Shown here in pieces: positions 10,604 through 19,435 of a DNA stretch of 64,000 nt. The stretch's first letter is position 1. Each line of letters begins with the position of its first letter. The notes beneath the pieces are model-generated. The model did no database searches. It saw only the letters and a list, made by a program, of their open reading frames with translations, and had not been told where the DNA came from. Source of the stretch: Podarcis gaigeae. Lineage: Eukaryota. The stretch lies in NCBI GenBank assembly GCA_964106915.2, contig OZ066923.1. One strand, given 5' to 3'. The position numbers and the translations under genes are program-made.

Positions 10604-11001
10604 TTGCTTTTTATTTCCTATTTTAATGGTGCATTTCCTAAGACATATCACTGTGTTGTAATCTTTCATTAGTATTAAATGTTACAAAGTCACAAGTAGT
10701 CTTTTGAGGTCTTTGAGAATTCACTATCCGGCTGGATATGAGACAAATCGTTGGGCAGCAAGTTAGAAACGGTTGTGCAAACCCAGTTGGTGCAAGACAC
10801 TTGGTGCAAGACAGATTGCAAGGTGTACCAGGGGCTACCATGATGAAAAGATATTTTTGAAACTCTAATACCTAGTAGCTGCACAGTTCTATCTCTAGCC
10901 TTGATTGAAACACCCAAGTCCATTGTAAAGCGAGGCCCACCAATGCAGCAAAGTCTGGTAGTATTGCTAGATATGGCCAAAGATTAACTCTATGTGGTAC
11001 A

Positions 11002-11507
11002 CTAGTAGCAGCATCTTAAAAAGCAGAGACATCACCTTGCCAGCAAAGGTCCGTATAGTTAAAGCTATGGTTTTCCCAGTAGTGATGTATGGAAGTGAGA
11101 GCTGGACCATAAAGAAGGCTGATCGCCGAAGAATTGATGCTTTTGAGTTATGGTGCTGGAGGAGACTCTTGAGAGTCCCATGGACTGCAAGAAGATCAAA
11201 CCTATCCATTATTAAGGAAATCAGCCCTGAGTGCTCACTGGAAGGACAGATCCTGAAGCTGAGGCTCCAATACTTTGGCCACCTCATGAGAAGAGAAGAC
11301 TCCCTGGGAAAGACCCTGATGGTGGGAAAGATGGAGGACACAAGGAGAAGGGATGACAGAGGACGAGATGGTTGGACAGTGTTCTCGAAGCTACCAGCAT
11401 GAGTTTGACCAAACTGCGGGAGGCAGTGGAAGACAGGAGTGCCTGGCATGCTCTGGTCCATGGGGTCATGTAGAGTCAGACACGACTAAATGACTAAACA
11501 ACAACAA
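11002..11507 (+). mobile_element. Bov-B (RTE) LINE 3' fragment
   Basis: ORF 10992..11402 ILKSRDITLPAKVRIVKAMVFPVVMYGSESWTIKKADRRRIDAFELWCWRRLLRVPW matches the Bov-B RT C-terminal region; frameshift near the end; (CAA)n tail. Confidence 0.95.
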
Positions 11508-15785: not shown

Positions 15786-16078
15786 TGTTTCTTGAATTTG
15801 TATACTGCCCTATACCCATAGATCTCAGGGCAGCTCACAACACAAAATGACAATATAAAAAAACCCCCACAAAATACATAATAAAAATAAAAGCAAAGGC
15901 AACTCAATAATCTCCTCCTCCACGACACATTTTAAAAGGGCATTTGATGTCAATCGGCCAAAAGCCTTGTTAAAGGGGAACATTTTCACCTGGCACCTAA
16001 AGGTTTATAATGAAGGCGCCAGCCAAACCTCCCTGGGGAGAGCATTCATTCCACAAATGGGAAGCCACTGCAGAAAAG
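15731..16078 (-). mobile_element. L2-like LINE 3' end with (AAT)n tail (15731-15782)
   Basis: (ATT)n microsatellite followed by tatactgccctatacc...cagggcagctcacaac and gggagagcattc...ccac...gccactgcagaaaagg, typical of an antisense squamate L2 3' end (recalled consensus). Confidence 0.65.
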
Positions 16079-16083
16079 GTAGG

Positions 16084-16837
16084 TGTCAGGGGCTCAGGAG
16101 CAGAAGCACAGGTAATGGAGAGCGAAGGGGAAGAATCTGAGGGCAGCGTAGGAGAAGACGACAGTGGCCCGAGAGATTCCATGAGCCTCTCCAGCGAATC
16201 GGAAGATTCACAGAAGGGGGCGCCGATGGCCAGGGCAAGGGGGGTCCCAGGGGGGATGCGCCAGGAGCAAGGGGCCAGCGGTGACTCCCAGAGCAGCGGC
16301 TGGAGATCAGGACCAGCTTCCCCACTAGAGCGCAGTGGGGGGGAAGAATCCCAGGTATCAGGGCCAGCGTCTCCTCCAGGAGGGAGAGAAGATGAGTTAG
16401 GGATGACCACGCCTCCATCGGGGAGCGAGGGAACGGTCAAAAGGAAGGTTGCCGACTGGGCGCGCACGCCAAGTTCAAATGTACAGGTGAGCGGCACAGC
16501 AGGTAGCCCGGATAGGGAACCAGGTCCTAAAGCCCGCCGGAAGGTGGGGAGTGAATCCGGGGACTCAGCGTCAGAAGAGTCCAGAAAGGGTGAGACCCCA
16601 GCGGGCAGGAGGGCCCAGAGGAGGAAGGAGCTAAGGAAGAGGTGGAGCAAGGCTAGAGTCTTAAACTGGTGTGGAAGGGGAGGAGATTCAGACGGAGCTT
16701 CGGCGGTCTAGGGTTTAAGACGTAGAGCTGCACGCTACGGCTTTGAAATGGAAACTGAACTTCAATAAAGACTTTTGTATATAACGACGATCTGGCGTTG
16801 GTCCTCTGTGAGCTGGGACCTTGGGGCAGCTCTGACA
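16084..16837 (+). mobile_element. Solo LTR (754 bp) of an LTR retrotransposon or ERV
   Basis: Starts TGTCAG and ends CTGACA (inverted termini, TG..CA); exact 5-bp TSD GTAGG at 16079-16083 and 16838-16842; AATAAA at 16764-16769; GC- and CpG-rich against an AT-rich background. Confidence 0.88.
16115..16711 (+). CDS. Uninterrupted 198-aa ORF inside the solo LTR (acidic/Ser-Gly-rich, basic C-terminus); hypothetical
   Basis: gtaATGG good Kozak context; MESEGEESEG...RRAQRRKELRKRWSKARVLNWCGRGGDSDGASAV*; stop about 50 nt before AATAAA; no evidence of expression. Confidence 0.35.
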   Translation: MESEGEESEGSVGEDDSGPRDSMSLSSESEDSQKGAPMARARGVPGGMRQEQGASGDSQSSGWRSGPASPLERSGGEESQVSGPASPPGGREDELGMTTPPSGSEGTVKRKVADWARTPSSNVQVSGTAGSPDREPGPKARRKVGSESGDSASEESRKGETPAGRRAQRRKELRKRWSKARVLNWCGRGGDSDGASAV

Positions 16838-17608
16838 GTAGGTTTTTCTGAGTTCCTTTGTGAAGATTTGTCAATATCAGAAGACCATATTTGTCATAAA
16901 GGCATCTCTTCCACACACTGAACTTAAGAACTAAGAAGCTAAAACTACATCTGTACTCCTAGAGGACCATTTTTAATATAATGGTTCACAGATAGGTTTG
17001 TGTCACAGAGAAATTTCCAATATTCCTTCCTACTGCAACCTCAATGCAAAGAGTTGTGCTACTGCTGGGAACCAAAAGGCCCTGTAATGGGTGCCTGTAG
17101 TCTAACCTTTCCTAAGAGGGCCTCCTTACTACACATACACAATATATGGCATATATGGGAATATCTAGTCCCTCAAGTGGAGTGCTAACATTAGTTGGGA
17201 CTGCATCAGCCAGAAGTCTTAGATTCAACTCATAAGAACCCCGATCTAAGAGTAGATATTCAAGATTTTGGCTATTGTTGTTGCATATCCATGACATCTC
17301 TGTCAAAAGACAAACATGCATTTCCTCCTGGAGAGAAGGGAGTTTGCTCCAGATGTGCCAACAGCACAGATATCTCTTTGTGGGGCAAAGAGGCAAGGGA
17401 GCACAATTCAATCTGGTTTCCTCTCCGAGATTTGTTTCACGTTTCTAAAAGACATACATTGTTCTCCTTGTAACATGACTCCAGACATAGGGCAGTGAAG
17501 CTTTGGACCAGAATCCTGGTCAATCTTCTTGGATAATGGTGGGCAGAGCAATCCAAAAAAAGAGGAAGCCTGTAAATTATGACAGGGAAAATTATGCCAG
17601 TGCAATTT

Positions 17609-18137
17609 GTTGTTGTTGTTTAGTTGTTTAGTCGTGTCCGACTCTTCGTGACCCCATGGACCAGAGCACGCCAGGCACTCCTGTCTTCCACTGCCTCCCG
17701 CAGTTTGGTCAAACTCATGCTGGTAGCTTCGAGAACACTATCCAACCATCTCGTCCTCTGTCGTCCCCTTCTCCTTGTGCCCTCCATCTTTTCCAACATC
17801 AGGGTCTTTTCCAGGGAGTCTTCTCTTCTCATGAGGTGGCCAAAGTATTGGAGTCTCAGCTTCAGGATCTGTCCTTCCAGTGGGCACTCAGGGCTGATTT
17901 CCTTAAGAATGGATAGGTTTGATCTTCTTGCAGTCCATGGGACTCTCAAGAGTCTCCTTCAGCACCATAATTCAAAAGCATCAATTCTTCGGCGATCAGC
18001 CTTCTTTATGGTCCAGCTCTCACTTCCATACATCACTACTGGGAAAACCATAGCTTTTACTATACGGACCTTTGCTGGCAAAGTGATGTCTCTGCTTTTT
18101 AAGATGCTGTCTAGGTTTGTCATTGCTTTTCTCCCAA
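17609..18137 (-). mobile_element. Bov-B (RTE) LINE 3' fragment
   Basis: ORF 17620..17949 RVPWTARRSNLSILKEISPECPLEGQILKLRLQYFGHLMRREDSLEKTLML; (TTG)n tail; possible caattt flanking duplication. Confidence 0.95.
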
Positions 18138-18887
18138 TTTACCCCATTCCAAATCCTGTTCAGGAGCGGGGCTACTGCCAACTGAGCTGGCCCAAGCCTG
18201 ACAGAGGGAAAACAAATCTTGAAAATAGAGTTGAACTTACTGTATCCTTTTTGCTGTGTGACTTCCTTGGGTTGCACAGTCATGTGACCAAGCTGAATTG
18301 AGTTTGGAATGCAATTAAGTCTCCTCTTGCTCCATCCCACCCACACCTCTTCCCCAGAATGCCCCATCTTCAGAAACTTCCCTGGCCTCTGCTCAGTGGG
18401 ATGCACTGCAGCTGAACTAGAATGGAGGACTTACACTGGTATATCACCAACTGAGCCAGGATGCTATTCCAAACTGCACTCCCAGTGCAGTTTGGGTTTG
18501 GATTGCTCCCCAAGTGCTCTTAAGAGTCCAGCCTTATGAGAACAAGCAGCTCCGAGAGACAGACTCACAACAAGGGGAGGAAATCACAGCCATTCATTCT
18601 CATTCATTTTATCAGCCTTCAGTAGAGGTGCTGGTCCGTTCCAGACCAACTTGGGCAAAAGGTGATGCTCTTGAAAGTCAAACTTCCTGGACACTGAACA
18701 GGAAGTAGAAGATTTCATGGAAAGGCATTCCCAAGCTCTCCTAATTTCCACTATAATTTCAAGTTTTTTAAAAGGCAAACCAGATAGCATGAATATATAT
18801 ATACCTGCATTTTCATATTTAATATTGCAACATAAAATTGAATCCCTCCCATTTTTTTCTTCTTTTACAGCAGTAGCATCTAAACCA

Positions 18888-19303: not shown

Positions 19304-19435
19304 NNNNNNNNNNNNNNNNNNNNNNNNNNNNNNNNNNNNNNNNNNNNNNNNNNNNNNNNNNNNNNNNNNNNNNNNNNNNNNNNNNNNNNNNNNNNNNNNN
19401 NNNNNNNNNNNNNNNNNNNNNNNNNNNNNNNNNNN
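19304..19435. other. Assembly gap (132 N)
   Basis: Run of N. Confidence 1.

Follow-up and report, generated by a model that had tools for sequence, protein, structure and literature searches.

The locus considered here poses a simple question: why should a solo long terminal repeat (LTR) carry an intact open reading frame (ORF) across nearly all of its putative U3 region, and is that frame a gene? The LTR lies at positions 16084 to 16837 of the window, which means the whole stretch of 64,000 nucleotides of Podarcis gaigeae DNA that was analysed. A first-pass annotation, made from the sequence alone, had proposed a disordered accessory protein that would be dispersed with every solo LTR. The comparison of related copies leads, with good confidence, to a different reading. 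The LTR would be the solo remnant of a self-priming type of chromovirus whose pol frame continues through the PPT and the whole of the likely U3, and the ORF would encode the predicted disordered tail of the integrase.

The solo LTR and its open reading frame

The TGTCAG..CTGACA ends and the exact GTAGG target-site duplication (TSD) described in the first-pass annotation are both present, the latter at 16079-16083 and 16838-16842, and the element measures 754 bp. Contigs of two other public runs (X18 and X19) connect position 16078 directly with 16838, and because this empty site skips exactly 759 bases, the LTR plus one TSD, the boundaries are confirmed. The LTR has a GC content of 59%, and 37 CpG dinucleotides are observed against 61 expected from composition. 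The features referred to below, all on the plus strand, are as follows.

16079..16083, plus: left TSD, GTAGG (sequence; empty site in two other runs)
16084..16837, plus: 754-bp solo LTR, subfamily A1 of a Ty3/Gypsy chromovirus (DNA search; paired copies flank gag-pol)
16085..16711, plus: last 208 codons and stop of the pol (integrase) frame (frame continuity; selection)
16115..16117, plus: ATG, coding for an unconserved internal Met of Pol (missing in A4/A5/A5b)
16307..16375, plus: two copies of SGPASP, in the middle of the tail, where constraint is weakest (dN/dS 0.61-1.40 for the segment)
16607..16669, plus: basic stretch with L-x-W motif, predicted NLS or nucleic-acid/chromatin contact (low-confidence helix in model; family B counterpart)
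16660..16666, plus: CTTAAAC, TATA-like candidate in codons V-L-N, some 30 nt upstream of the likely start
16690..16700, plus: 11-nt putative self-primer, which is complementary to the PBS that follows the 5′ LTR, within codons S-D-G-A-S (covariation; fold)
16724..16731, plus: 5′ arm of a second stem, U5-IR-like, pairing with 16826-16833 (covariation)
16764..16769, plus: AATAAA polyadenylation signal, in R (also kept in A4/A5)
16826..16833, plus: second stem, 3′ arm, within U5 (fold; covariation)
16838..16842, plus: right TSD, GTAGG (sequence)

The frame is open for 208 codons from base 2 of the LTR and for 198 codons from the ATG at 16115, with its stop at 16709-16711, and translation reproduces the ORF as annotated. 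The SGPASP motif, which occurs twice, the basic NLS-like stretches and AATAAA are also as described. Two caveats had been attached to the ORF, that GC-rich DNA yields long frames by chance and that the opposite strand is open too, and both are borne out in the window's LTR. When the bases of the LTR are shuffled, 249 of 5000 sequences contain a frame of at least 208 codons, so that the length of the ORF is weak evidence by itself, and the frame is judged to be real from its conservation and its continuity with pol.

To the left of the LTR, window positions 15820-16078 belong to a high-copy repeat whose depth is far above single copy in four runs, and the right flank is single copy from about 16870. 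The window also contains fragments at 17620-18301 and 10970-11485 that we take to resemble BovB/RTE LINE ends, and a run of 132 Ns at 19304-19435.

The parent element

A DNA search of the 1.5-Gb genome with the LTR gave 2874 candidates, of which 40 were scored, all of them 93-100% identical to the LTR. Among thirty LTR copies that were fetched, 18 are solo and flanked by a 5-bp duplication of their own, 12 border on internal sequence, and the frame is open in 21. Paired LTRs of this family, designated family A, are 98.4-99.9% identical and enclose gag and pol. Here, gag encodes a Ty3 capsid and a CCHC knuckle, and pol encodes reverse transcriptase (RT), RNase H, integrase, a Tf2-type SH3 domain and a weak chromodomain. 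In Pfam the SH3_Tf2-1 match has an E value of 4e-13, and the Chromo match only 0.013, below its cut-off; the closest solved structure is Ty3 Gag-Pol (E 1.6e-129). The full-length copies examined have the order PR-RT-RH-IN between TG..CA LTRs, and no env was found in them. These full-length elements, which the first-pass annotation had wished to see found for classification of RT and integrase, identify the LTR, on its sequence features, as that of a lacertid lizard's Ty3/Gypsy chromovirus, one that is young, present in many copies and without env. Where gag and pol overlap, 14 of the 15 full-length copies (L031-L034, L117, L217-L223, gag end) have the motif GGGAAAC, the likely -1 frameshift site for Gag-Pol.

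Several observations concern the distribution of copies. A single contig (G000:C32; 29.5 Mb, 2% of the assembly) accounts for 27 of the best 40 matches to the internal region; it is probably a W-like chromosome and also carries segmental duplicates of one copy with a common stop. The best 12 protein-search matches (L189-L200, mostly A4; G000 contigs C2, C8, C9, C15, C17, C24, C25 and C31) gather at contig ends, with 9 of the 12 within 0.5 Mb of an end against 0.19 expected, compared with 5 of the 54 others against 0.69, and telomeric (TTAGGG)n arrays adjoin 6 of 24 distinct loci. Subtelomeric duplication may account for part of this clustering, since some contig-end loci have flanking sequence in common. 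Copies that combine an A1-like internal region with an LTR about 63 nt longer (232 codons; L042, L055-L057, L062, L064 and L065) suggest recombination between subfamilies. In the TSDs of 74 solo LTRs, position 1 tends to be a purine, position 3 A/T and position 5 other than A, which amounts to a weak palindromic preference.

The open reading frame as the end of pol

In full-length copies the frame starts about 1,300 codons upstream of the LTR, as pol, and crosses the PPT into the 3′ LTR at a D/V junction. Copy L034 has a single stop-free frame of 1331 codons that passes from RT through integrase, chromodomain and PPT to the LTR stop, and copy L117 has an unbroken frame of 1528 codons to the same stop, which settles the earlier question of whether the ORF begins upstream of the 3′ LTR. 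Because pol continues without a break through the chromodomain and the PPT, enters the 3′ LTR and stops where the ORF stops, the ORF is, as judged by frame continuity, the last 208 residues of Pol and not an accessory gene.

A common frame joins the chromodomain to the LTR stop in 12 of the 15 full-length copies of family A, and 6 of the 15 are unbroken from the protease onward, many of these copies having been chosen by protein searches, which favour open frames. The same bias applies to a hand count in which stop-free frames of at least 1500 codons hold about 55 of 101 protein-search matches. Among UniRef proteins, P0001 and P0002 of Podarcis muralis have the same ending, with 55-60% identity over the tail region, and P0001-P0003 carry Thr at the position of the ATG. 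Pfam recognized 0 families in the LTR peptide. A representative-protein search with the tail gave 10 matches, of which the named ones are all from Podarcis; no fish, amphibian or snake relative of the tail was among the 10, an absence that says little where the region is of low complexity.

A sample led by DNA gives a less favourable count. Thirty 3′ ends were fetched, and removal of 6 duplicates and 1 without an anchor left 23, of which 12 have the chromodomain and LTR in phase. The other 11 are short by 1-2 nt, always in runs of G or C and scattered over the tree, with the G-run just before the PPT as the site of loss in 6 of the 11, on several branches; UniRef P0006 likewise ends in a frame shifted at this G-run. 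Slippage or assembly error may be responsible for these losses, and the out-of-phase ends leave room for a dispensable tail.

A second family with the same layout

A second chromovirus family, B (copies L137-L158 and L227-L231), shares 58% RT-IN identity with family A and has no DNA similarity to it in the LTR. The family B LTR is 411 bp long (range 409-435 bp), and pol extends into it by about 102-114 codons, in the same phase as in family A. Its tail ends in a basic and LLCW segment similar to that of family A, in which the L-L/F-C-W codons change in DNA and the residues are mostly kept. Family B is also self-priming and has two FxGF motifs. PF00385 is recorded for the family-B-like proteins P0151-P0153, and a PDB sequence search with the motif region of family B gave 0 matches at E<=10.

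Selection on the LTR-encoded tail

Retention of the ORF and dN/dS between subfamilies, which the first-pass annotation had proposed as a check, were measured on 151 distinct family-A LTRs, of which the 119 intact ones fall into 16 clusters. Tail length is 208-232 codons across subfamily groups, and the part after the stop is near-constant at 123-127 nt. Differences common to two copies of each subfamily were counted as fixed, in the intact copies only (119 of 151), so that the finding of zero fixed stops is partly by construction. Between subfamilies, dN/dS is 0.27-0.54 in 9 of 9 pairs, which are not fully independent, as recombinants are visible. For five pooled pairs pN/pS is 0.39-0.44 (P<1e-6), and four other frames give 0.92-1.66. 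In the antisense frame with common third positions the ratio is 0.50-0.54, with 4 stops, this low value being a shadow of the shared third positions.

Fixed and private changes differ in kind. The ratio of synonymous to nonsynonymous changes is 68:73 among fixed and 44:94 among private differences (P=0.007), or 55:65 and 29:71 for non-CpG changes (P=0.012). In 60 DNA-selected copies the private changes (44 synonymous, 90 nonsynonymous and 4 stops, with 28% synonymous expected) look neutral, and 15 of 15 ORF indels are not multiples of three; solo and other individual copies thus decay neutrally. A control on private mutations in intact copies gave pN/pS of 0.50-0.70, and since such copies are intact and partly protein-selected, the DNA-selected copies were used instead. 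Indels fixed between subfamilies are 3, 9, 24 and 63 nt long, with one ambiguous pair whose 5+1-nt gaps in the first 31 nt are a multiple of three only together with a neighbouring insertion. The first-pass annotation had named a lack of 3n bias and a dN/dS near 1 as the contrary outcome; what is found are 3n fixed indels, a low pN/pS and purifying selection in every pair compared, as in a real coding frame. The tail is under moderate purifying selection, with dN/dS of about 0.3-0.5.

Constraint is unevenly spread. The tail has an overall dN/dS of 0.34-0.45, with 0.14-0.35 in the first 60 residues, 0.61-1.40 in the middle and 0.14-0.62 in the last 35 residues; the integrase core, at 0.07-0.18, is under stronger constraint. 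A possible, if somewhat unlikely, account of this pattern is that the tail is translated in Pol but is mostly tolerated read-through, selection keeping the frame and the promoter and primer DNA while the LTR-coded residues have no specific binding role. The near-neutral middle would agree with this, as would the variable length of the tail (102 codons in family B to 232), the recurrent frameshifts before the PPT, and the overlap of the conserved C-terminal codons with the TATA candidate and the self-primer. Constraint on promoter and primer DNA may explain part of the C-terminal conservation, since the spacing from W to the primer is identical in families A and B. Such an account does not predict the low ratios at both ends of the tail, the blocks ESEGE, SEDSQ, SSNV and EPGPKAR that are invariant in 11 subfamily representatives, or the family B L-L/F-C-W residues retained through codon change; moreover, the easy alternative, a stop right after the chromodomain, is fixed in no subfamily group (intact copies only). 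It is also conceivable, though improbable, that the tail is made in Pol and then cut off by the protease of the element as a separate small protein, for example a nucleic-acid-binding or nuclear one. Polyprotein processing is the rule in Ty3/Gypsy-type elements and a long disordered linker lies behind the chromodomain, but no cleavage site was identified and there is no sign of a separate product. The reading preferred here is that the tail stays part of the integrase.

Self-priming and the likely transcription start site

The end of the ORF overlaps the putative self-primer. Complementarity between the self-primer and the PBS is found in 22 of the 26 full-length elements examined, the remaining 4 having yielded no LTR pair or PBS. 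Of 11 possible Watson-Crick pairs 9-11 form, and the site keeps a constant distance from the end of the LTR. Across families A and B there are six covarying primer/PBS variants, and the site appears in 0 of 5000 shuffles. The second stem is a perfect 7-8 bp in 10 of 11 subfamily representatives, with four compensatory variants; the overall fold of the LTR has a z-score of only -1.2.

Passages on Tf1/sushi self-priming describe the 5′ part of the mRNA as the primer (PMC4600332, PMC6317226), and from the position of the self-primer we therefore infer that transcription likely starts at about 16690, the U3/R border, within the last 7 codons of the ORF. The TATA-like candidate upstream has the same spacing in A and B, but reads CTTCTTTG in several B copies. 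The TTTAAG motif that had been read as TATA-like is present at 16714-16719, but it was rejected as a TATA box: it lies in R, downstream of the likely start, and is unconserved in A4/A5. Contigs of four presumed-RNA runs from relatives cover the element, but are of a kind that cannot show starts, strand or level, and were given no weight here.

If transcription begins near 16690 in the 5′ LTR and runs to the poly(A) signal of the 3′ LTR, only the 3′ LTR of a full-length RNA would provide a template for translation of the tail, and since the likely start lies within the last codons of the ORF, the promoter of a solo LTR would not transcribe it. The suggestion that the product is spread and expressed with every solo LTR thus loses its footing, the more so as individual copies decay neutrally. 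An independent accessory gene that begins at ATG 16115 and can be expressed from solo LTRs is very improbable. The ATG has a purine at -3 and G at +4 and is retained in 20 of 20 A1 and 47 of 48 A3 intact copies, but it is missing in 22 of 22 copies of three subfamilies (A4, A5 and A5b), and Met is wholly absent from 13 of 13 A5/A5b tails. The frame is joined to that of pol, the likely start is downstream of the ATG, and the neutral private mutations of DNA-selected copies include the 4 stops; a separate protein from this ATG is accordingly not upheld. A chance open frame in GC-rich, T-poor DNA, for which the shuffled sequences and an antisense frame open in 18 of 20 A1 copies might speak, can be dismissed as next to impossible in view of the frame-specific synonymous excess, the fixed indels of 3n length, the continuity with pol seen in both families and an antisense frame that is closed in all 75 copies from six other subfamilies. 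The antisense ORF itself was rejected on this last count, together with the origin of its low dN/dS in shared third positions.

The chromodomain and the FxGF motif

In an AlphaFold model the chromodomain alone folds (residues 1-60, pLDDT 67-88), and the rest is of low confidence; there the basic C-terminal segment shows a weak helix. The highest-ranked Foldseek matches are chromodomains with E of about 0.003, none of them reaching 0.001 or better, and the ESM Atlas returned only chromodomain clusters for the P0001 tail (0.78), which is a lead only. Presumably this is a chromodomain that has lost cage residues. Predicted disorder and the basic C-terminal stretch, plausibly an NLS, agree with the disordered nuclear or RNA-binding product first proposed; its status as a separate protein does not stand, since the frame continues pol. 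By analogy with Ty1 integrase, the model suggests a disordered integrase tail that carries short motifs.

One such motif, F-x(7-9)-FxGF with a Ser/Thr/acidic spacer, directly follows the chromodomain in families A and B; it is upstream of the PPT and therefore outside the solo LTR. The pattern F-x(6-10)-FxGF occurs within 85 residues of the chromodomain start in 20/27, 24/25, 19/20 and 15/15 loci with a chromodomain match (78/87 in total), and a like pattern occurs once in the 127,996 six-frame residues of the window. Between A1 and A4, 22 of 27 residues of the motif region are identical; elsewhere in the linker 47 of 100 are. The spacer is 7-9 residues long and 57-88% D/E/S/T in 13 segments that had been selected by the motif. 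The monomer model has no helix before the spacer, where pLDDT is below 50 and helices may form on binding.

According to a review of TND-interacting motifs (TIMs; PMC9987994), these consist of a helix, an 8-16-residue acidic/Ser/Thr linker and an optional FxGF, and FxGF is found in all known LEDGF and HRP2 partners. The helix is a short, obligate one, and CK2 phosphorylation enhances the binding of such motifs to a TND. The lizard motif resembles these LEDGF/HRP2-binding TIMs and is a putative tether; genes with the LEDGF domain (PF11467) are present in the same genome. Tentatively, the one or two TIM-like FxGF motifs could bind the TND of LEDGF/p75 or HRP2, so that the element would reach chromatin via the host reader used by HIV-1 integrase, by mimicry of the linear motif of host partners, with nearly the whole U3, promoter and start site made coding.

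Comparison with known systems

Vertebrate Sushi-type elements, whose primary description is reportedly that of Butler et al. 2001, are the natural point of comparison. The lizard element has Tf1/sushi-type features, namely gag-pol order without env, SH3 and chromodomain, and self-priming, and its assignment would be by features and not by tree. Passages on V-clade Tf1/sushi chromoviruses (Sushi-ichi, Amn-ichi/ni/san) describe the same gag-pol order, chromodomain integrase, absence of env, self-priming PBS and 5-bp TSD (PMC6317226, PMC2774666), and AATAAA near the LTR's 3′ end (PMC3601003). In contrast, pol here enters the LTR by 208-232 codons in family A and about 102-114 in family B, over the likely promoter and start, an extension that the passages on Sushi-type elements do not mention (PMC6317226, PMC2774666); also, Sushi LTRs are described as T-rich, and the U3 here is purine-rich and coding.

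Extension of the polyprotein into the 3′ LTR is known from the plant CRM group A and Beta Bingo1-4/7, where, in the passages concerned, the frame similarly runs through the PPT and the LTR-coded part is a putative targeting region (PMC3059260, PMC3605345). The same passages give CRM elements tRNA-Met priming and group A a CR motif in the LTR that replaces the chromodomain (PMC3059260, PMC3605345), whereas the lizard element has a chromodomain about 200 codons upstream of the LTR, a self-primer and a reptile host. Membership in CRM group A was rejected on the chromodomain upstream of the PPT, the self-complementary PBS and the absence of a Pfam match in the LTR peptide. Coding sequence also overlaps U3 in MMTV sag and lentiviral nef, which are separate genes with their own start and a spliced mRNA. 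The lizard ORF shares the position over U3, but is the end of pol and lacks a conserved start of its own. No report of a vertebrate pol frame that enters the LTR was found in the literature searched; Repbase, supplements and most subscription journals may hold one.

Ty1 integrase offers a functional parallel in its long disordered tail, a short segment of which contacts a host complex to steer integration (PMC8487063). Ty1 is Copia-type, however, its tail is not LTR-encoded and binds Pol III, and no sequence relation is expected. In the TIMs of IWS1, KMT2A, JPO2 and others, hydrophobic residues, an 8-residue Ser/Thr/acidic spacer and FxGF recur, and some host TIM proteins carry two or three motifs, as family B has two (PMC9987994). 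Here, by contrast, the motif is in a retrotransposon integrase, and the family A spacer, mostly Ser/Thr, would need phosphorylation. Lentiviral integrases bind LEDGF through a folded interface. They are the only integrases named in the passage on viral mimicry (PMC9987994), and a TIM in a retrotransposon was not found in the literature searched, subscription journals and supplements being outside its scope.

Proposed mechanism

Frame continuity, purifying selection, ATG loss and PBS/primer covariation are observed, and a start site, RNA span and frameshift consistent with them are proposed. Transcription would start near 16690 in the 5′ LTR, and the genomic RNA would reach the poly(A) signal of the 3′ LTR. 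Gag-Pol would be produced via a -1 frameshift at GGGAAAC, and ribosomes would come upon the tail only in the 3′ LTR of this full-length RNA, the ORF of a solo LTR being a silent passenger upstream of the promoter. The tail likely helps the integration complex into the nucleus and onto chromatin. It would do so as a disordered scaffold of motifs, comprising the degenerate chromodomain, F-(Ser/Thr/acidic)-FxGF and the basic NLS-like C-terminal segment, and would work like the targeting tail of Ty1 integrase.

Implications

ORF-bearing LTRs of this kind are to be reread, as thousands of candidate solo copies would hold a piece of pol and not a gene. Young vertebrate chromoviruses would show dual coding, with an integrase tail laid over promoter, start site and self-primer, an arrangement that in the literature found has so far come from plants. 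If true, mimicry of LEDGF/HRP2 partners would be a route to chromatin not found in the literature searched, and the conserved LEDGF/HRP2-type FxGF motif adjoining a degenerate chromodomain offers a testable lead on how vertebrate chromoviruses may choose their insertion sites.
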